Assembly (NCBI RefSeq): GCF_054482525.1
Contig: NZ_CM137006.1
Reading direction: 5' to 3' (one strand)
Length of the DNA stretch: 64,000 nucleotides
Below, one piece after another: positions 10,816 to 60,820 of the stretch (positions are counted from its first letter, which is position 1; every line of letters begins with the position of its first letter). The notes under the pieces were generated by a model, which worked only from the letters and a program-made list of their open reading frames with translations, did not search any database and was not told the origin of the DNA. The translations under genes were made by a program, and so were the position numbers.

Positions 10816-10988
10816 AAAGTTCTTTTGTGTTGCATTGCTGGCGTAAATGTCAGCAATGCAGCATTTCCTCACGATTCTCCTTTGACGATCGCACTTTTTG
10901 CTCGTTATGATGGCGTCGCTAGCCTCAGTAAATCCTTACTCCGGCGGTGCGCAACCCGTGCGCGTGAACCACTATCTGAATGCTCATC

Positions 10989-31312: not shown

Positions 31313-31397
31313 ATAAAAAAACCTGCTGGTGAGGCAGGTTCTTTGATTTACTACTTTCAGGCCTAACACCACGGCCTGTGCAACATCGTGTTCCAAC
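31313..31397 (-). ncRNA. orzO: putative OrzO-1 antitoxin sRNA (boundaries inferred)
   Basis: Minus-strand promoter (-35 TTGCAA, 17-bp spacer, -10 TATAAT as revcomp of 31404-31409) and minus-strand terminator hairpin acctgc...gcaggt plus T-run (31313-31340); contains the complement of a 19-nt stretch that recurs in the zorO-1 5' UTR (31543-31561). Confidence 0.45.
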
Positions 31398-31921: not shown

Positions 31922-32006
31922 AAATAAAAGAACCTGCTGGTGAGGCAGGTTCTTTTATTTACTACTTTGATGTTAAGTTACTGATAGTGCAACATGGCAT
32001 CTCAAC
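31922..32006 (-). ncRNA. orzO: putative OrzO-2 antitoxin sRNA (boundaries inferred)
   Basis: Same promoter/terminator architecture as copy 1; pairing segment differs from copy 1 and matches its own UTR target (32156-32174). Confidence 0.45.
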
Positions 32007-50849: not shown

Positions 50850-51122
50850 ATGTCTCATACCATCCGTGATAAACAGAAACTGAAAGCGCGTGCCAGTAAG
50901 ATTCAGGGCCAGGTCGTGGCGCTCAAGAAAATGCTCGACGAGCCGCACGAATGCGCTGCAGTTTTACAACAGATTGCTGCTATCCGTGGCGCGGTAAACG
51001 GTCTGATGCGGGAAGTGATTAAAGGTCATCTGACGGAACACATCGTTCACCAGGGGGATGAGCTAAAACGTGAAGAAGATCTGGATGTCGTTCTGAAGGT
51101 GCTGGATTCTTATATCAAATAA
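50850..51122 (+). CDS. rcnR: Ni/Co-responsive repressor RcnR (CsoR/RcnR family)
   Basis: 90-aa [24 protein letters not shown]...; recalled identity to RcnR. Confidence 0.9.
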
Positions 51123-51210
51123 TTTATTAACGCTATTGTAAAACTGCCGTTTTTCCTCGTTTACAACGGGTGCGCTGGACATTACCATCCTCCTCTGCGA
51201 TTTATCATCG

Positions 51211-51292
51211 CAACCAAACGACTCGGGGTGCCCTTCTGCGTGAAGGCTGAGAAATACCCGTATCACCTGATCTGGATAATGCCAGCGTAGGG
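51211..51292 (+). repeat. attL: left copy of the 82-bp direct repeat (thiM riboswitch aptamer segment)
   Basis: Identical to 59101-59182. Confidence 0.8.
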
Positions 51293-51375
51293 GGCCAAAA
51301 TAGTCTTGAAAATTATGTGGTTGTATCTCTTTTTGACCATAAATCATGCTGTTAAGGTACAAAAAGGGGTCGTTT

Positions 51376-52683
51376 ATGAGGTCAAGAACTCTCCCATACA
51401 CATTTCAGCGAAACGGTAATTACTATCTACAAATCCGGCTTTCGGATGGTCGGATATACAAAAAATCACTTTTTACTGACAGTTATCGCGAAGCATCGGC
51501 GTTGATGATTGGCCTTACTCCGCACATTCCTTTCGTTAAATCACTCGCTACTCCGTTGCCGCAATTTAATAAGTTTGTTTCAAACTTGATCGCTTCGTCA
51601 CGTAACGTAATGATTCCGTTGCCACTCCCTCAGCAATTGAACAATATTTCTAAAGAAGTTTTGCAGCTTCAACCACCAGCCAAACCGGAAAAGGTACTAA
51701 CACTTGCTGATGCGTGGGCTATGTACAAGGAGGAAAGAGGTCGAAATTGGACAAAATCGATCTCAATAGCAAATGAGCGTTATATGGAGGTATTGCTTGT
51801 TGTCTTGGGAAAAGAAACAGACGTAACGGCAATCACCAAACAAGATATTAAGCGAGTAATGGAAACTGTCGAAAACTTACCAAAGCGTGTAGTGCAACCG
51901 TATAGGTCAATGACTATTCAGCAACTAATCGAATGTGATGATGTGCTGCCAGAGGATTTAGTTGGTGCTGAGGCTGTACATAAGCACCTTAAAATCTACA
52001 AATCGTTATTCAAAACATTTCTGACTGAAAACAAAGATATTCTATCTAAGTCTCCGACTGATGGAATAGTAGCGGCACCATCCAAAGCTAGGTTTGGTGC
52101 ATACAGTGCAGCAGAAATGAAAAAATTTGTAGGATGGGCACTAAAGCAGCCTGATGGATGGCAGAAGTGGATCACTTTGTTGTTGGCGTACACAGGAGCC
52201 AGAAGAGGTGAGATTGCTAAACTGGAGAAGTCGCAGATCAAATTTGATGAAGATAGCCAGCGGCACTATCTTCTGATCGCGGAAAGAAGGCTGGGTAAAA
52301 CTGAGAATGCTACAAGACAGGTAGTGATTCATCCCAAACTGATTGAGTGGGGGTTTCTGGATTTTGTTAACCGCCAATGGAAAGAGAAAATCTTTTCGGA
52401 AGTCTCAGGTCGAAATATGTCAAAGATAGGTAAAGTTCTTTCAGATGTTCGTGATCAGCTTGATATTCCTTATCTTGATGATTATGGGCAGCGGCGCTTG
52501 GTGCATAGTTTCCGGCATACTATGATTTCTACTTGTTTAGCTGGTTGGGTGAGTAATTTGGCGCATCTGCAACAGGTGGTAGGTCATGAAAAGAGTGGAG
52601 TAGGGATTACCCAGCGTTATCTGCACACATTCCCACTTTCCACCGTTTGTTATGTGATCGATGGTCTTTGTTGGGAGACTTAG
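51376..52683 (+). CDS. int: tyrosine site-specific integrase
   Basis: ATG at 51376 preceded by SD aaaagggg; C-terminal catalytic block HSFRHTMISTCLAGW...GHEKSGVGITQRYLH (R, H-x-x-R, Y). Confidence 0.85.
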   Translation: MRSRTLPYTFQRNGNYYLQIRLSDGRIYKKSLFTDSYREASALMIGLTPHIPFVKSLATPLPQFNKFVSNLIASSRNVMIPLPLPQQLNNISKEVLQLQPPAKPEKVLTLADAWAMYKEERGRNWTKSISIANERYMEVLLVVLGKETDVTAITKQDIKRVMETVENLPKRVVQPYRSMTIQQLIECDDVLPEDLVGAEAVHKHLKIYKSLFKTFLTENKDILSKSPTDGIVAAPSKARFGAYSAAEMKKFVGWALKQPDGWQKWITLLLAYTGARRGEIAKLEKSQIKFDEDSQRHYLLIAERRLGKTENATRQVVIHPKLIEWGFLDFVNRQWKEKIFSEVSGRNMSKIGKVLSDVRDQLDIPYLDDYGQRRLVHSFRHTMISTCLAGWVSNLAHLQQVVGHEKSGVGITQRYLHTFPLSTVCYVIDGLCWET

Positions 52684-52811
52684 TTATTCGTGTATCCTTC
52701 TTAGTGTATAACCAGCTAATAATTTGTAGATTTTTATTGTCTGAGATCAAAAATTTTCACAACTAATTTACAATAATAACTTAAGATGAATTTAGGCTTA
52801 GTGAGTCTTCT

Positions 52812-53537
52812 ATGGTTAAAAATTTAGGCAAAAAATACAAGTATGGCGATCAACCGATAAGAGCTATTACCATACAGATAATTGCTAATCAGTTTGGTGG
52901 GGCTGCAACGGCTAAGCAGGTAGATGATTATCTTAGAAAGCTATTTCCATCTTATAAAGATAATACTTGGCTCAATTTAATTGCTAATACAGTTAATTGT
53001 AAGCGGAGCTACTGGAGTTTCAACAAAACTGCCCGACGAACTGATGATGTAACTCATCGGCATCATAAGTATGACCGATTGTTCAAGCGTGGAAATATTT
53101 TTGAAATCTATCAACCATCTGTGCACGGTATTTGGGAATTATACCAGGATTTAGAAGGGATGTGGCGTTATCGTCAAGTAAAATCGGTTTTCGAAGAAGC
53201 TGTTGAGACGGCTGCAAAATTATCTTCAGTGGAACGAAAGCAAATTTTAGCGACAGAAAGTAAAATCCCGGAACTAATCGAAGTAACAACACGAGTTTAT
53301 AAACGAAGCCCATATGTAGTTGCTGAAGTTCTTTTGAGAGCAAATGGAAAATGTCAATATTGTAAGCGAGATGCTCCTTTTCTAAAGGAAGATGGTACTC
53401 CATTTCTAGAAGTTCATCATATTGAGTGGCTTTCAAAGGGGGGGGAGGACTCTGTGGAAAATGCTATTGCATTATGTCCTAATTGCCATAGACAAGCCCA
53501 TTATGGCGATCTGACATTACTACCTGTTAATAAATAG
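52812..53537 (+). CDS. McrA-like HNH endonuclease (candidate type IV / modification-dependent restriction or defense nuclease)
   Basis: C-terminal CQYCKRDAPF...LEVHHIEWLSKGGEDSVENAIALCPNCHRQAHY closely resembles the recalled McrA HNH region; N-terminal about 190 aa unrecognised. Confidence 0.65.
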   Translation: MVKNLGKKYKYGDQPIRAITIQIIANQFGGAATAKQVDDYLRKLFPSYKDNTWLNLIANTVNCKRSYWSFNKTARRTDDVTHRHHKYDRLFKRGNIFEIYQPSVHGIWELYQDLEGMWRYRQVKSVFEEAVETAAKLSSVERKQILATESKIPELIEVTTRVYKRSPYVVAEVLLRANGKCQYCKRDAPFLKEDGTPFLEVHHIEWLSKGGEDSVENAIALCPNCHRQAHYGDLTLLPVNK

Positions 53538-53614
53538 GCTTGATGAAAGTTCTATTTCTATATTTTTCAATATACAAATTTCCCCAAAAACGGCGTGAAT
53601 ATCACGCCGATCAA

Positions 53615-53962
53615 TCATACTTCAGAACACATACTCAATGTGTAAACAGCCATCTCCCCATCGGGATTAGAAGGGCGTAATACAAATATCGGTATACTGC
53701 CATTGTCAATGTATGTGGCTGCAACCCCTCCGTCAGGTGTAGCATACATCTTTGCGATGCTTTTTTGACCTACAAAATCAAGTCTCCAAGTTTTACCGCC
53801 AAGATTTATGGTCATTTTTTTATCTTGTATATCAAAAGTTGAATCTACAGAAACTTTCTGACTTCCCGAGTCAATATGACCTTCCTGTATTGCTTTACAG
53901 GAAAAGGTTGTGGCGTGGCCCATCACTGGAATTAACAAAGCGGCAAATACTAGTTTTTTCAT
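53615..53962 (-). CDS. hypothetical secreted protein
   Basis: Start placed at MKKLVFAALLIPVMGHA (signal peptide); divergent from the XRE-family gene. Confidence 0.45.
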   Translation of the reverse strand: MKKLVFAALLIPVMGHATTFSCKAIQEGHIDSGSQKVSVDSTFDIQDKKMTINLGGKTWRLDFVGQKSIAKMYATPDGGVAATYIDNGSIPIFVLRPSNPDGEMAVYTLSMCSEV

Positions 53963-54072
53963 TTGTCTCCCTTGGTGTGTCAAATGGATGGTGATGCTAA
54001 TAATACATGATTGATTCAAAATGTCACGATTAGTGCGTGGTTAATTGGTGCGTCAAATTGCATCTTTGTGCC

Positions 54073-54537
54073 ATGCGAAAGAATCTGAGATACCTTTTTG
54101 GACAACGAGTAAAAGAGTTCCGTATAGCTATTGGCTTAAGCCAAGAGGCCTTTGCAGATCGGTGTGGTTTTGCACGTAGTTATATGAGTCGAATTGAGCG
54201 TGGTTGCTCTAATGCATCTCTTGATGCAATTGAGGTTCTGGCTGACGCTTTGCGTATTGAGCCTTGGCAGTTACTGGCTTCTGATTCAAGGAAACCTGAT
54301 GATCAGGAGGTACTTGTTCCTTATGCTGCAGATGGGTCGTGTTTTCATCCAGGATTGGCAAGTACTCGCGATGGTTCGTTTAGAGTAGGGGAAAAATCAG
54401 CCCAGAAACGTTTCAGTTCGTTCAATGAAGCTCTCGAATACCTTCGTGGAATGGAAACCGCGAAGTGGCGTAGGCCTAATGCTAGTGGTAATTGGGGAAT
54501 TGTATCTGCGGTTAAATGGGATCGACTGAATCAATAA
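54073..54537 (+). CDS. XRE-family helix-turn-helix transcriptional regulator with C-terminal extension
   Basis: N-terminal HTH (LRYLFGQRVKEFRIAIGLSQEAFADRCGFARSYMSRIERG); start could also be 54037. Confidence 0.6.
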   Translation: MRKNLRYLFGQRVKEFRIAIGLSQEAFADRCGFARSYMSRIERGCSNASLDAIEVLADALRIEPWQLLASDSRKPDDQEVLVPYAADGSCFHPGLASTRDGSFRVGEKSAQKRFSSFNEALEYLRGMETAKWRRPNASGNWGIVSAVKWDRLNQ

Positions 54538-54703
54538 GATATCAGTAATTTTCGGGCCACTCCACAAGGCAATAAGTGGCTTAGTGGTGATTATCGAAGG
54601 GGAATACAAGCGAGCACCTAGGCACCATTGCAAGAACCGCTCAACGCTGAGATCAGCAAGCCCCGATTTTTGCCGACCGTCCCTGTCAAATATCAAGGAG
54701 GCA

Positions 54704-55255
54704 TTACGCCACCTGCTCTTTCTTGATACGTTGCACCGTCTGCGTGCTGACACTGAAATCTTTTGCTACGCTCCGAATTGAGCCACCATTCGCGAGAGCG
54801 GCAGCAATTCCCGCTCGATCAATTGCTTTTCCATTACCACGTTTTGCTATACGTCCAGCGGCCTTGGCTGCGGCGATCCCTTCACGTTGACGCTCAAGCA
54901 TCATTTCACGTTCCATTTGTGCCACTGCTGCAAGAACTGTGAGCATCATATTCCCTGCGGGAGAGTTCTTTCCTGTCTTAAAGTCTTCTTTATGGAAATG
55001 CACAGACACGCCGCGCTTTGTTAATTGCTCTACAGTTGCCAGAAGGTCGGCTGTATTACGACAAAGGCGATCAATACTATGGACGTGTAACACGTCACCC
55101 TCCCGCACATAGTTCATCATTGCCTCAAACTGTGGGCGCTGAGTGTTCTTGCCTGACGCTTTATCTTCAAAGACTTTATCAAGAGTTACTCCTGCTAATT
55201 GACGGTCTGTGTTTTGTTGCACAGTCGATACCCTAATGTATCCAATATTAGCCAT
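54704..55255 (-). CDS. small serine recombinase (resolvase/invertase family)
   Basis: N-terminal catalytic motif GYIRVSTVQQ (Ser nucleophile) and C-terminal HTH; 183 aa. Confidence 0.8.
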   Translation of the reverse strand: MANIGYIRVSTVQQNTDRQLAGVTLDKVFEDKASGKNTQRPQFEAMMNYVREGDVLHVHSIDRLCRNTADLLATVEQLTKRGVSVHFHKEDFKTGKNSPAGNMMLTVLAAVAQMEREMMLERQREGIAAAKAAGRIAKRGNGKAIDRAGIAAALANGGSIRSVAKDFSVSTQTVQRIKKEQVA

Positions 55256-55741
55256 CTTCTTTTTTCTTCTGTATTGATTTGTGTGTAGTGATTATTGAAC
55301 GTGTTGATTAGGTGTGTAAAGTACTTTTTTCACTACGAAATTCGAAGTTTTTTAGTGTGGTGATTTAGCCTGCCTTATCACTACACTTCTTGCATGAGAA
55401 TCATGTAGTTACATTTTGGTAAAATTAGCAAGCTATTAAATTGTGTGTTTATTTTGAAAAAATAATTTTTGTTGCATTAAAGAAAACTTGTTCGACAAAT
55501 AATAGGTTGATTTTTGATCAATAATTTCTGATAGTGCTCTGTAAGCCGCATTACACAAGGCGCAGCGAAAGTGATGTAAAAGTGAAGAAAGCTAACATTG
55601 CACTTTTAAACTACTTTTCATTGAATTTTTTAGTATGGAATTACACAGGAATAAGTTAGGGATATTCTATGATTTACACAGGGAATATAGGGGGATTATG
55701 GTATTACACAGAGTGAGTGCTATGTGATGATTGGTAGTAAC

Positions 55742-55850
55742 GGTAGGTCACTGTGAACTAGGGGGGTAGGTCACTGTGAACTAGGGGGGTAGGTCACTGT
55801 GAGCTAGGGGGTAGGTCACTGTGAACTAGGGGGTAGGTCACTGTGAACTA
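55742..55850 (+). repeat. iteron array (5 direct repeats of about 22-24 bp), candidate replication origin
   Basis: ggtaggtcactgtgaactaggggg repeated five times head-to-tail, flanked by AT-rich DNA and further ttacacag / gtgtaatt motifs. Confidence 0.7.
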
Positions 55851-57106
55851 CAATAAGACTATAATAAGACTATTAATAAAACTATATTAGATTATTAATT
55901 AGATCATAATAATAATATTCTTTATATCTATATATATATGATCTTTTGCCTTCCGGCGTTAGCTTCACTCTCTGGCAAGCAGCCTTACTCCGCTACCTTT
56001 CGGGCTACGTTGGCTGGCCCGTTCCGCTCACACCGAAAGCAAAGCGTTACTTTCTTCGTGTAACTTCGTTGGCGGTAACGCCCACGAAGGAATACTATTG
56101 CGCTGTGCGCAGTAAGAGTAATCACCTAACCAATCATCTGATTGCTTACGTGTTAACTCTCTCTAACTCTTAATTACCCTCCTACATTTAATAACTCTCG
56201 TTATTCTCTGTAGTTGTGTAATTACTCGAAGAGAGAGCGGCTAAAGCTCAATTACACTCTGCTTTCCTCGTGTAATTTCACTAAGCCTCAATACAATTTC
56301 ACTTCCTACATTCTGTAGTCGTGTAATTGTTTTCGGTGGAAAAGCCAGAGGCGACACCGAAAGAGAATTCTGATCTTATTAATCTTATCTATCTTAGTTA
56401 TCTTACTTACTTTATCTACTTTATTATTAATAATAGCTTTATAAGCTCTCTGTGTAGCTCTCTGACGCAAGAAACAGAGTTCAGGAAGGGAATCACCTTA
56501 GAAAAGTGTTCTTTGCGTCATAATGTGTTTTATGAAGGATTCAGAGGTGTTTCATAACAGAGATGTATAGAGGATACTTTAGGTAATTAAAAATAAGGGG
56601 TCTAAATGCTTCTCTAACAGCATTAAGCAGGGTAGAGAATGGAAACCGCTTTGCCTACATATATAAACTCACTACAGGGCTTTACAGAGCGTTTTATAAA
56701 GTGACTCTCTGTTTTATATCTACCATCACCTTTTCATATACCTAACAAATACAAAATAAGCCCCTTAAATAAGCCTCTGGCGAGCTAAACAGCCATTACA
56801 TAAGAGAATGTATTGCTTTTATCAAAACCTCGTTAGAACGCGTTTTAGAGCGTTTTAGCGGATAATGAAGAATAGCACTACACAGGAGAGCACGAATTGC
56901 TAAGAAAAAATGTAACTACATGAAAAAGATCAGATTTTTTGTGAAAAGGTATTGACAAACGTCTCTTTCTGTGCAATAATAGGTATTAGAGGGACAGGAA
57001 TAGATTCTTATCCTCTAAATAATTAAACCAATGCACCGCACTTTGAAGCCCAAGGCTTGTAAGGTGTGTTTTTTCTTTTAACCAAATAGAATAAGGAGGC
57101 TAATTA

Positions 57107-57295
57107 ATGAAATATTTTACTCCACAGGATGTAGTAGAAGCCTGGAAACGTGGTGAGATCAACCGCTTTAAAGTAAGGATGTATAGAAACACCGCTCGCC
57201 GTTGTGGTTATCCAGAGCGTGAAAAATGTTTTGACGATGCACTAAAAATTATTGATGAACTGCGTAAAGCTGAGAAAGAAGCAGAGAAAAAATAA
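57107..57295 (+). CDS. hypothetical small protein (62 aa)
   Basis: ATG preceded by strong SD aaggagg; first of four co-directional genes each with a strong SD. Confidence 0.45.
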   Translation: MKYFTPQDVVEAWKRGEINRFKVRMYRNTARRCGYPEREKCFDDALKIIDELRKAEKEAEKK

Positions 57296-57317
57296 TAGAC
57301 AAGAGAAGGAGAAAACT

Positions 57318-57485
57318 ATGAGCGAAACTAAGAAACCAATTCCGCGCACTTACCTACACGTTGACCCTGAAATCTTCAAGGTTTTATTTGCTGAAGCCAA
57401 GAAAAGGCAAATTATGGTCAGTGATTTGATGTTAGAAATCATTACTGAAGCAGCAGAGAACATCAAACAAAAAAAGGGTAAGTGA
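57318..57485 (+). CDS. hypothetical small protein, possibly ribbon-helix-helix DNA-binding (56 aa)
   Basis: ATG preceded by SD aaggag; below the ORF-track cut-off from this start; RHH call is weak pattern-based inference. Confidence 0.4.
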   Translation: MSETKKPIPRTYLHVDPEIFKVLFAEAKKRQIMVSDLMLEIITEAAENIKQKKGK

Positions 57486-57536
57486 TCCTCATTCACTTTA
57501 GTAGCGCATTAAGCGTGATTTATAAGGAGATTTTTA

Positions 57537-58226
57537 ATGATTAATCAACTAACTTTTACAAAACACTATGACACGTTTGATAATGTATCAAAGATTTATT
57601 CTGATAAATTCCCTCAAGGAAAAGATTTAGATCTATTACATATTGTGCTTTATTTTCGATTCCTTAGTTATCAGGAAAACAACCTTAATTGTTATGAAAG
57701 TCACGAAACATTAGCTAAGATTTTTAAGTCTTCAGCGTCAACAATTAAACGTAAGATAAACGATCTTAAAGAGATGGGATTATTAGAAACATCCCCACAT
57801 CCTGATCCGTATATTTCATCTTTGATTTACAATGCTCTCCCTCTCACAGATGCACATATTACTCCCCCAGGAGAATCATCACTCTCTGATCTTTCTGAGG
57901 CAGAAGAAGCACAGGAACAACCTAAAGGCCATAAACAGCCTTCTTTTGATGTTCTTGATGATTGGGATACGCCTTTACCCTGGGAGACGGAAGAAACACC
58001 TGTTTCATCAAGTGAAAAAGTAGCTAATGATAATGAGGAGGATGTGTTAGAGAATTTTGCCTCTCTTATCATCCAGGAGAAACACACAAGAACAGGAGGA
58101 GCATCATTTATTGAGTTTGCAAATTCACTAGCTTGTAGATACGGGCTAAAACGACCAAATGGTATTGAGGCATATTTTTCTAAGAATTACCCAAATATAT
58201 ACGATGACTTTGATATTCCATTTTAA
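57537..58226 (+). CDS. putative winged-helix DNA-binding / replication-initiator-like protein
   Basis: 229-aa ORF with SD aaggag; N-terminal HTH-like segment and acidic C-terminus; lies downstream of the iteron array. Confidence 0.4.
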   Translation: MINQLTFTKHYDTFDNVSKIYSDKFPQGKDLDLLHIVLYFRFLSYQENNLNCYESHETLAKIFKSSASTIKRKINDLKEMGLLETSPHPDPYISSLIYNALPLTDAHITPPGESSLSDLSEAEEAQEQPKGHKQPSFDVLDDWDTPLPWETEETPVSSSEKVANDNEEDVLENFASLIIQEKHTRTGGASFIEFANSLACRYGLKRPNGIEAYFSKNYPNIYDDFDIPF

Positions 58227-58237
58227 TAAGGAGGGTT

Positions 58238-58483
58238 ATGATTCAATATTTAGTAAAAAATCAAGTAGACAGAATTCAGTGTAATGACACAGGAAAACGC
58301 ATCTACGAGACACTTGTTTACCTCTATAAAGGAAAGCCAACACCGCTAAAATATAGCGATGTGTTACATCGAGCAGGTTGCTCTGAGTCAGGTTTAAAAT
58401 TCTGGCTGAAACAGCTATCAAATTTCGGTGTTATTGAAATGAAAGAGCTGTCTTTTTCTACATTCAACCTCAAGAAGTTATAG
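58238..58483 (+). CDS. hypothetical small DNA-binding-like protein (81 aa)
   Basis: ATG preceded by SD aaggagg. Confidence 0.4.
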   Translation: MIQYLVKNQVDRIQCNDTGKRIYETLVYLYKGKPTPLKYSDVLHRAGCSESGLKFWLKQLSNFGVIEMKELSFSTFNLKKL

Positions 58484-58648
58484 AAAATAGAATTCATCTA
58501 TTCCACGCTCTAATTCTATTTCTCTGTTTAATATAAAAGGAAAACATTATTATGGTAATAGCTATGTGGTGGTTGTTGTTTTTTATGCTCGTAGAAACAT
58601 ATGCAAGTAAGTCTGGAAAACAAAAATAATATATTGATGATTTGTTTT

Positions 58649-58888
58649 TTATAACTTCGTGGTGTCAAGTCCAGCAGCTTTGAGTCGCTCGGTAAGATTT
58701 CTCATTTTGCTGAACTCTGTACCAAAGCTGGCTTTAAGTCCTACACCTTCACAAAACTCTTTTGCCGTAACCTTTTTCAGATGGTCAGCATATTTGATCA
58801 TCTGGAGGTGCATTTCCATCGTTTGGCTATTTCGTGGTGCGCTGCTAATGGCTTGCTTAATGTTCTCGTAGATCTGGGTTTCTGTCAT
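58649..58888 (-). CDS. hypothetical small HTH-like protein (79 aa)
   Basis: 79-aa ORF convergent with the four-gene module; possible HTH (VTAKEFCEGVGLKASFGTEFSKM). Confidence 0.35.
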   Translation of the reverse strand: MTETQIYENIKQAISSAPRNSQTMEMHLQMIKYADHLKKVTAKEFCEGVGLKASFGTEFSKMRNLTERLKAAGLDTTKL

Positions 58889-59100
58889 TTTTTATCTCAC
58901 CTATCAAATTTAGATAAATAATATAAATTAGCAAATTAAGATAATCAATAGTTTTTATCATCTGAATGATAGATGTTAAATGTTTCTTTTTCATTTCTGA
59001 TATGGGGTACAAAATGGGGTACACAGAGAAGAAGCAATTAATGGAGGCGAGCTTGCATCTGCAAGCCACTTCCCCTAAGCTGGCACAAAATATAGAGATT

Positions 59101-59234
59101 CAACCAAACGACTCGGGGTGCCCTTCTGCGTGAAGGCTGAGAAATACCCGTATCACCTGATCTGGATAATGCCAGCGTAGGGAAGTCACGGACCACCAGG
59201 TCATTGCTTCTTCACGTTATGGCAGGAGCAAACT
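59101..59234 (+). promoter_or_regulatory. thiM TPP riboswitch (thi-box aptamer plus expression platform)
   Basis: Sequence cgactcggggtgcccttctgcgtgaaggctgagaaatacccgtatcacctgatctggataatgccagcgtagggaagtc... matches the E. coli thiM riboswitch from memory; ends at the thiM start codon; the first 82 nt double as attR. Confidence 0.85.
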
Positions 59235-60023
59235 ATGCAAGTCGACCTGCTGAGTTCCGCGCAATCTGCGCACGCGTTACACCTTTTTCACCAACATTCC
59301 CCTCTTGTGCACTGCATGACCAACGATGTGGTGCAAACCTTTACTGCCAATACCTTGCTGGCGCTCGGTGCATCGCCAGCGATGGTTATCGAAACCGAAG
59401 AGGCCAGTCAGTTTGCGGCTATCGCCAGTGCGTTGCTGATTAACGTTGGCACGCTGACGCAGCCACGCGCACAGGCGATGCGTGCCGCCGTTGAACAGGC
59501 AAAACGCTCTCAAACACCCTGGATGCTTGATCCAGTAGCGGTGGGTGCACTCGATTATCGCCGCCGTTTTTGTCTGGAACTTCTGTCTCATAAGCCAACC
59601 GCCATACGTGGTAATGCTTCGGAAATCATGGCATTAGCTGGCGTTGCTAATGGTGGACGGGGAGTGGATACCACTGACGCCGCAGCTAACGCGATACCCG
59701 CTGCACAAACACTGGCACGGGAAACTGGCGCAATCGTCGTGGTCACTGGCGAGATGGATTATGTTACCGATGGACATCGTATCATTGGTATTCACGGTGG
59801 CGATCCGTTAATGACCAAAGTGGTAGGAACTGGCTGTGCATTATCGGCGGTTGTCGCTGCCTGTTGTGCGTTACCAGGCGATATGCTGGAAAATGTCGCA
59901 TCTGCCTGTCACTGGATGAAACAAGCCGGAGAACGCGCAGTCGCCAGAAGCGAGGGGCCAGGCAGTTTTGTTCCACATTTCCTTGATGCGCTCTGGCAAT
60001 TGACGCAGGAGGTGCAGGCATGA
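59235..60023 (+). CDS. thiM: hydroxyethylthiazole kinase
   Basis: 262-aa [23 protein letters not shown]...; recalled identity to ThiM. Confidence 0.95.
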
Positions 60024-60820
60024 AACGAATTAACGCTCTGACGATTGCCGGTACTGATCCGAGTGGTGGTGCGGGGATTCAGGCCGATCTTAAAACCTTC
60101 TCGGCACTTGGCGCTTATGGTTGCTCAGTGATTACTGCACTGGTGGCGCAAAATACCCGTGGCGTACAGTCGGTGTATCGCATTGAGCCTGATTTTGTCG
60201 CCGCCCAGCTCGATTCGGTGTTCAGCGATGTGCGAATCGACACCACTAAAATCGGTATGTTGGCGGAAACCGATATTGTTGAAGCGGTGGCAGAACGGTT
60301 GCAACGTTATCAGATCCAAAACGTGGTACTCGACACCGTTATGCTGGCAAAAAGCGGCGACCCGCTGCTTTCACCTTCGGCGGTTGCTACGCTGCGCAGT
60401 CGATTATTGCCACAGGTTTCATTAATAACGCCAAACTTGCCCGAAGCTGCTGCCTTGCTCGACGCGCCACACGCGCGCACCGAACAGGAAATGCTGGAAC
60501 AAGGGCGATCGCTGTTGGCGATGGGCTGTGGCGCAGTGCTAATGAAAGGTGGTCATCTGGATGATGAACAAAGCCCGGACTGGCTGTTTACCCGCGAGGG
60601 TGAACAACGGTTTACGGCACCGCGCATTATGACCAAAAACACCCACGGCACTGGTTGTACACTCTCTGCGGCGTTGGCTGCACTACGCCCGCGCCATACA
60701 AACTGGGCAGACACCGTCCAGGAGGCAAAAAGCTGGCTTTCATCGGCGTTAGCCCAGGCCGACACGCTGGAAGTTGGTCACGGTATTGGTCCGGTTCACC
60801 ACTTCCACGCCTGGTGGTGA
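60020..60820 (+). CDS. thiD: hydroxymethylpyrimidine / phosphomethylpyrimidine kinase
   Basis: 266-aa ORF; 4-nt overlap with thiM. Confidence 0.95.

Follow-up and report, generated by a model that had tools for sequence, protein, structure and literature searches.

A small integrative island inserted at the thiM riboswitch of Escherichia coli: a probable by-product aptamer and proposed thiM-type read-through into the integrase gene

Genomic islands of the Islander type, which target tRNA and tmRNA genes, hold in attP a copy of their conserved target, so that the target is rebuilt (PMC4383910). In the KplE1 intS modules, attL overlaps the regulatory region of the integrase gene, recombinase sites are located at the start of int, and negative autoregulation occurs (PMC2951348). 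Concerning ICEclc, a review (PMC5812530) of the work of Sentchilo et al. 2003 describes, for Pcirc/Pint, a far-end promoter that points outward in the integrated form and is fused upstream of int in the circular form. As to the thiM riboswitch of E. coli, its control by thiamine pyrophosphate (TPP) was shown with arabinose-driven fusions and consists of sequestration of the Shine-Dalgarno (SD) sequence and the AUG codon, together with Rho termination needing codons 20–34; transcriptional fusions of 6, 10 and 20 codons were not repressed (PMC5499598). The present analysis deals with an island located next to thiM in a stretch of 64,000 nucleotides of an E. coli chromosome (contig NZ_CM137006.1; henceforth the window), in which a copy of the thiM aptamer precedes an integrase gene (int). 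We consider it probable that the region before int is the left attachment (att) site, attL, of a small site-specific integrative island, that the aptamer found there is a displaced by-product, and that int is expressed by thiM-type read-through which does not respond to thiamine.

The local gene order is rcnA (− strand), rcnR (+ strand), and then thiM and thiD, with the island between rcnR and thiM; the island region is 100% identical to that of strain SCU-102. On its left side, the thiM regulatory region is bordered by the open reading frame (ORF) of rcnR (50850–51122, + strand), for which SCU-102 has the annotation RcnR. A perfect direct repeat of 82 nt (51211–51292 and 59101–59182, spaced by 7890 bp) encloses 7.89 kb of foreign DNA. 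The left copy (attL, + strand) is host-derived thiM leader and aptamer, with the 5′ strand of helix P1 and helices P2, P3, P4 and P5, displaced from thiM. The right copy (attR, + strand) is the island-borne aptamer that now serves thiM. It is followed on the + strand by the host P1 3′ strand and the thiM expression platform, including the anti-SD and the SD sequence GGAG (59183–59234), which were left beside thiM (59235–60023) and thiD (60020–60820), both + strand ORFs being intact. Rfam detected TPP aptamers on the + strand at 51214–51309 (61.3 bits) and 59104–59200 (71.2 bits), the gathering score for the TPP riboswitch (RF00059) being 54.3 bits, and both copies are annotated as TPP riboswitches in SCU-102 by the Prokaryotic Genome Annotation Pipeline (PGAP). 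When 51123–51292 was joined to 59183–59300, the resulting sequence was found without interruption in 4728 of the 5426 complete genomes of E. coli, one of them being that of K-12 MG1655 (98.6% identity to the joined sequence). Therefore, the island is an insertion into an otherwise intact site. The uninterrupted thiM site is missing in about 13% of the complete E. coli genomes. The repeat, the two Rfam aptamers and the empty sites are in good agreement with the layout given in the first-pass annotation of this DNA, with the thiM promoter and leader (51123–51292) followed by int at 51376 and thiM about 8 kb away.

The same annotation described the copy before int as truncated, which is correct for the P1 3′ strand and the expression platform, both gone, but not for the P1 5′ strand and helices P2, P3, P4 and P5, all of them retained. 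Compared to the described E. coli thiM riboswitch (RF00059; PMC5499598), the attR copy is complete and canonical from 59101, and lacks the native promoter together with the 16 nt that begin the native transcript. The attL copy is identical in sequence from P2 to P5, but it is devoid of the P1 3′ strand, of the anti-sequestering partner, of the stem that sequesters the SD and of the element in codons 20–34 on which Rho acts. It scores above the covariance-model threshold, but a closed P1 helix joining both sensor arms was not found in 51214–51309: the native 3′ strand AGUC is exchanged for island sequence, and two of the five modelled P1 pairs are non-standard. The possibility that P1 had been rebuilt from island sequence was considered and rejected, as AGTC at 51302–51305 yields just 4 bp after a 9-nt insertion, and in the consensus of the att subtype to which the window belongs (type A, defined below) this place is taken by a GGCCGAAATTCGGCC hairpin. 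Nor was any conserved substitute found.

The architecture of the site was compared among relatives of the integrase. A scan with the Int protein, taking one genome per species, returned 41 loci. Relatives with 64–84% identity occur in about 20 genera of Enterobacterales, and in every one of them with the int start and upstream DNA present, int is preceded on its own strand by a TPP aptamer copy, the end of which is about 85 nt away. None of the distant homologues (29–36% identity, marine gammaproteobacteria) showed a TPP motif upstream. So, as judged from these upstream regions, riboswitch targeting is confined to an Enterobacterales clade. Both island ends were within reach in 11 loci. In nine of them, the attL and attR copies differ in their 5′ part (P1 flank, P3 or J3/2). 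In all 11, the last 27 nt before the junction are identical, the only exception being three bases of the P5 loop, which has decayed in the attL copy of locus L004. This places the putative crossover at the 3′ end of the aptamer, around GCCAGCGTAG(GG), its exact position being deduced from the extent of identity. For instance, in an E. coli relative (L003), the thiM-side P3 is GCCCCAUCAAUGAUGGGC and the int-side P3 is the E. coli GCCCUUCUGCGUGAAGGC. Considering the ten thiM-side (attR) copies, standard pairs occupy 230 of 230 pair cells, and three P3 pairs are changed on both sides in a compensatory manner. The differences between the 5′ parts of attL and attR, together with the compensatory P3 pairs, indicate that the island carries its own, structurally constrained aptamer copy in the attachment site. 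By the same comparison, the 82-nt repeat is not a duplication made by integration, and the earlier statement that integration duplicated the aptamer segment has to be abandoned.

Two att subtypes can be distinguished. In type A, that of the window, island DNA begins after GTAGGG, and in type B it begins with CTGGCGATTATCC after GTAG. As CTGGCGATTATCC repeats GGATAATGCCAG in inverted orientation, type B has the usual look of core-type recombinase sites. The pattern RGGTACAMA matches three times in the 64-kb window, always in att flanks. Two arm-type repeats GGGTACA(A/C)A are in the island right arm, or P arm (59005–59025, + strand), where relatives have three copies, and the arm-type repeat AGGTACAAA at 51355–51363 overlies the int SD. 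Across type A, GGTACA repeats occupy both arms, and they are also found over the int SD (51355–51363) and codons 2–5. Their position and conservation suggest that they are arm-type sites of Int, possibly involved in autoregulation of int. In loci L006, L010, L022, L024, L017 and L023, the “host” side of attL, over some 110 nt upstream of the aptamer, corresponds to the right end of an older island, which indicates serial integration and decay, with repeated turnover at the same riboswitch.

As in Islander-type islands (PMC4383910), a tyrosine integrase hits here a conserved segment of structured RNA, int adjoins one att site, and a displaced partial copy of the target marks the other end of the island. 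Unlike those islands, which enter RNA genes, the present one enters a riboswitch aptamer, a cis-regulatory element of a 5′ leader. Another difference is that the thiM island replaces the 5′ part of its target and therefore must also bring upstream transcription signals, and the displaced host promoter and aptamer end up facing int. In the literature consulted, the coverage of which was incomplete and does not prove absence, no islands at thiM or at riboswitch att sites were found.

Concerning the transcription of thiM, the right end of the island was found joined to thiM in 543 genomes, while the junction of rcnR, promoter and int was found only in 167. A direct fusion of rcnR to a degraded island is present in 340 of the 5426 complete genomes of E. 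coli, O157:H7 strains among them. The empty-site query matches these 340 genomes only from position 89, the start of the repeat, and does so once per genome. According to these matches, the native thiM promoter is deleted in the 340 genomes and only island DNA precedes thiMD. In CDC#03-98, the inspected example of this group, thiM and thiD are annotated as intact. The degraded island of this strain (L002, 12318–14590) has no int, its native promoter and attL are deleted, and one GGTACA arm repeat is lost. Since the 340 genomes without the native promoter keep only the island right end before thiMD, thiM probably relies on island DNA for its transcription. In addition, the right ends of type B contain TTTACA-17-TACTAT, a promoter homologous to those native to thiM. 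Both observations lend weight to the first-pass suggestion that thiM expression may depend on a promoter in the right end of the island. In the window, the candidate replacement promoters lie in a conserved block directly upstream of the island-borne aptamer (59053–59100, + strand), which is invariant among type A islands of six genera. They are TTGCAT (59053–59058) and TAAGCT (59076–59081) separated by 17 nt, or a −10 element TATAGA (59091–59096), in both cases read by eye and from conservation. About 110 bp upstream of the type A aptamer are conserved across six genera, even where the DNA further upstream is unrelated. Compared to ICEclc, as described in the review cited above, the thiM island is similar in that its far-end candidate promoter points outward when integrated and would precede int when circular. 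It differs in that the putative outward promoter would also drive an essential host operon, thiMD, and that a host promoter replaces it before int.

The conserved block contains another element worth noting. An inverted, slightly altered copy of the att core and the host-side P1 3′ strand is present at 59068–59085 (TGCCAGCTTAGGGGAAGT versus TGCCAGCGTAGGGAAGT), with equivalents in L010, L012, L019, L023, L024, L042 and L043; in type B, the equivalent sits within the spacer of the thiM-type promoter. If transcribed, the inverted copy is predicted to pair with the 3′ part of the aptamer, a pairing also made by the anti-sequestering partner of the native riboswitch. The inverted copy might serve Int as a binding site that controls the promoter, or act at the RNA level, or be a historical relic.

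On the other side of the island, the native thiM promoter, PthiM (51160–51195, + strand), shows a −35 element TTTACA (51160–51165), a 17-nt spacer, a −10 element TACCAT (51183–51188) and a transcription start site (TSS) at C51195. In promoter scans, TTTACA-17-TACCAT was the best sigma-70-like match upstream of the left repeat, and upstream of thiM in Citrobacter koseri, Enterobacter, Pluralibacter and others there are homologous promoters of the form TTTACA-17-TAYCMT. The TSS was located by counting back from the thiM ATG with the numbering of Bastet et al. 2017 and subtracting the 7890-bp island. In that numbering, the thiM AUG is 151–153 (mutant U152A), the ribosome-binding site (RBS) mutant is G142C, and in vitro transcripts begin with CUGC (PMC5499598), with which the CTGC of window positions 51195–51198 agrees. 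The supplements of Mendoza-Vargas 2009 list only a primer, and no TSS was taken from there. PthiM, together with the 98 nt that begin the native thiM transcript, is now directed into int, whose ATG (51376) is 83 nt past the repeat and 181 nt past the TSS, PthiM and int being co-oriented. No terminator-like site was found between the PthiM TSS or the aptamer and int, and the scans gave no + strand promoter match of at least 9/12 between 51189 and 51376. The left arm of the island, or P′ arm (51293–51375, + strand), which runs from the core to int and is conserved in type A relatives, contains neither a convincing sigma-70 promoter nor a terminator. Read-through from PthiM into int is thus plausible, because both are co-oriented and only 181 nt apart, with no terminator or good int promoter between them. 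So, the proposal that int is transcribed from a thiamine-regulated thiM promoter can be accepted in what concerns the promoter that faces int; the part referring to thiamine cannot, since this promoter is not a known site of thiamine control.

Alternatively, int could be driven by a weak or factor-dependent promoter of its own in the left arm, with autoregulation by Int as in KplE1 intS, in which case the juxtaposition to PthiM would be irrelevant. Overlap of attL with the integrase promoter and negative autoregulation are indeed common in prophages (PMC2951348), the arm-type repeats cover the int SD and codons 2–5, a convergent promoter-like site lies at 51339–51312, and the 181-nt untranslated leader of a PthiM transcript could be a target of Rho. 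Nevertheless, the best int-proximal sigma-70 candidate, which was rejected, is a hybrid site of only 8/12 (TGGATA at 51273 and CAAAAT at 51296, with a spacer of 17) that spans the junction. It is not conserved, as the type A consensus has G at position 2 of its −10 element. Together with the lack of + strand matches of at least 9/12 in 51189–51376, and with the fact that TSS candidates near the SD would leave almost no leader, this makes a promoter proper to int rather unlikely. The comparison with KplE1 intS is in line with this: in both systems attL overlaps the int regulatory region, with putative Int sites over the int start in the thiM island, but attL of the latter has no recognisable int promoter, and its Int sites are deduced from repeat position and conservation. 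As to the convergent site itself (TGGTCA-16-CATAAT, 51312–51339, − strand), which is a consensus match only (9/12), it converges on PthiM in the integrated island, and after circularisation any transcription from it would cross attP in the direction of a gene for an HTH_73 protein.

The retention of a promoter and an aptamer before int raises the question of whether int expression, and hence excision and integration, answers to the levels of thiamine or TPP. The type A attL copy keeps all the ligand-contacting helices and scores 61.3 versus 54.3 bits, it lies on the path of the int transcript with no terminator between, int would be behind a thiM-type promoter and an aptamer in both the integrated and the circular forms, and pairing of the P1 5′ strand with the int SD region is possible in this particular island. 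Against this, the thiM promoter is not a known thiamine-control site, and the attL copy has lost its P1 3′ strand. The known TPP control of thiM, that is, SD/AUG sequestration and Rho termination at codons 20–34 (PMC5499598), resides entirely at attR, where the expression platform and those codons remain with thiM. To speak of a thiamine-regulated thiM promoter is thus inadequate. Across the family, thiM-side copies score 73–78 bits, and int-side copies 57–61 bits in type A, those of type B and of L004 not reaching the threshold. In type B, folding predictions indicate that the aptamer fold costs 8–14 kcal/mol, a core hairpin competing with it and winning. The int-side copies of L004 (9869–9916) and L042 (3594–3656) are decayed at otherwise invariant aptamer positions (P5 loop GGGGAT for GATAAT, P2 CGAAG and P4 CCAGCTG), changes which are consistent with relaxed constraint on int-side copies.

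Two possible links between aptamer and int translation were considered and rejected. Forcing the aptamer helices barely altered the predicted accessibility of the SD and start region (shifts of 0.14 or less in 17 loci). Nor was pairing of the P1 5′ strand with the int translation initiation region conserved across the family, with means of −5.6 kcal/mol for cognate and −5.2 kcal/mol for non-cognate combinations. In silico, no expression platform was recognised at attL: the native one is at 59183–59234, and there is no conserved pairing with int. Altogether, thiamine control of int is not supported by the analysis, and from these models a TPP response is not expected; an int expression that answers to thiamine is, in our opinion, quite improbable. 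The coupling of recombination to thiamine status put forward in the first-pass annotation fails for the same reasons, as no conserved link joins the attL copy to the int RBS, and this copy falls below the Rfam threshold in type B and decays in some lineages.

It seems reasonable to interpret the locus as follows. The tyrosine integrase would use the 3′ end of the thiM TPP aptamer, around GCCAGCGTAGGG, as attB. Its attP would carry upstream promoter-like DNA and a full aptamer copy up to the crossover, so that integration would swap regulatory regions between host and island. On one side, thiMD would gain island upstream DNA and an island aptamer fused to the host P1 3′ strand and platform, and the riboswitch would thereby be rebuilt. 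On the other side, int would gain the host thiM promoter and the host aptamer copy, devoid of P1 3′ strand and platform. The aptamer before int would then be a displaced by-product of the att architecture, rather than a working riboswitch. Having no recognisable promoter of its own, int would probably depend on read-through in either state, the thiM-type promoter being that of the host in the integrated form and that of the island in the circular form, and the arm-type sites over the int SD and first codons may provide autoregulation by Int.

Some observations weigh against this interpretation. Read-through could be blocked by the leftward promoter-like site at 51339–51312, or by Int itself, if it binds to the arm sites. 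Both PthiM read-through and right-end promoter activity are inferred from sequence, and the right-end candidates of type A, the subtype of the window, are weak (about 7/12, or a −10 without a −35). The type A attL copy is still above the Rfam threshold, and binding of TPP to it is possible. Moreover, in the minimum free energy (MFE) fold, a 9-bp helix is formed by AAACGACUC (51217–51225) and GGGGUCGUUU (51366–51375, the int SD region), which could bring about some coupling of aptamer and int in this variant, the pairing itself being probably due to chance, since it is not conserved in relatives.

This helix deserves separate consideration, as it might act as a substitute P1 that hides the int RBS and damps Int translation constitutively, with TPP at most stabilising it. 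The MFE fold of 51195–51405 has the aptamer helices closed by the AAACGACUC/GGGGUCGUUU helix, with an SD unpaired probability of about 0.1, and the duplex amounts to −12.1 kcal/mol, compared to a mean of −5.9 kcal/mol (standard deviation 2.0) for shuffled sequences. On the other hand, 0.9% of the shuffles reach that energy and several regions were inspected, so chance is realistic. No comparable helix was found in 23 relatives, the pairing being peculiar to this variant, and the 73 nt between P4 and the substitute strand would cost the three-way junction its geometry. We give this possibility little credit. Even less can be given to the fuller version, in which the type A aptamer before int binds TPP and tunes Int synthesis, here through the substitute P1 helix, so that integration and excision sense thiamine. 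If true, it would be a riboswitch-controlled recombinase, with island movement reporting the thiamine state of the cell.

The locus represents an integrase clade that takes a riboswitch aptamer as its chromosomal target instead of a tRNA gene, and rebuilds the riboswitch with its own copy and upstream DNA. It is worth noting that in the 340 genomes mentioned above, O157:H7 included, island DNA has permanently replaced the native thiMD promoter, and therefore thiMD expression in them may differ from the K-12 model that underlies the work on the thiM riboswitch. Concerning genome annotation, a second “TPP riboswitch” before an integrase gene would be better taken as an att-site remnant than as a sign of thiamine-regulated recombination.

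The integrase gene (51376–52683, + strand, start as in PGAP) encodes 435 amino acids, with matches to PHROG 1 (9e-27) and Pfam PF00589 (4e-6), and its translation shows the catalytic motifs ARRGE, HSFRH and GITQRY. Besides int, the island body (51293–59100) contains an HNH gene, a helix-turn-helix (HTH) regulator, a serine recombinase, iterons, a Rep-like gene and the HTH_73 gene. The island is 100% identical in two other genomes and at least 80% covered in 64. The HNH protein (52812–53537) matches a type IV methyl-directed restriction enzyme in PADLOC (1e-23), and the cargo looks defensive. A related island at the thiM site (L003, 18195–19805) carries an AIPR (abortive infection) gene. The serine recombinase is small and was classified as a DNA invertase by PHROG and NCBIfam scans. 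Five iterons of 22–23 bp (55739–55855) and the Rep-like ORF (57537–58226, PHROG 270) make up a plasmid-like replication module. The segment around 57306–57875, with small ORFs and the start of the Rep-like gene, is 97–99% identical to the lytic Escherichia phages inny and muut. The gene of the HTH_73 protein (PF24718, 79 amino acids, 58649–58888, − strand) adjoins attR in the majority of type A islands as well as in the O157:H7 remnant, and its product may be a directionality factor or a regulator. A phage-inducible chromosomal island or a P4-like satellite was also considered and rejected, as PHROG and NCBIfam scans of 10 ORFs gave no packaging or capsid function.

Two observations elsewhere in the window are unrelated to the island. 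Two OrzO-P antitoxin RNAs (31315–31390 and 31926–31999, − strand) belong to a zor-orz type I toxin-antitoxin locus, and a Peptidase-S11 RNA motif is found at 10904–10984 (+ strand).

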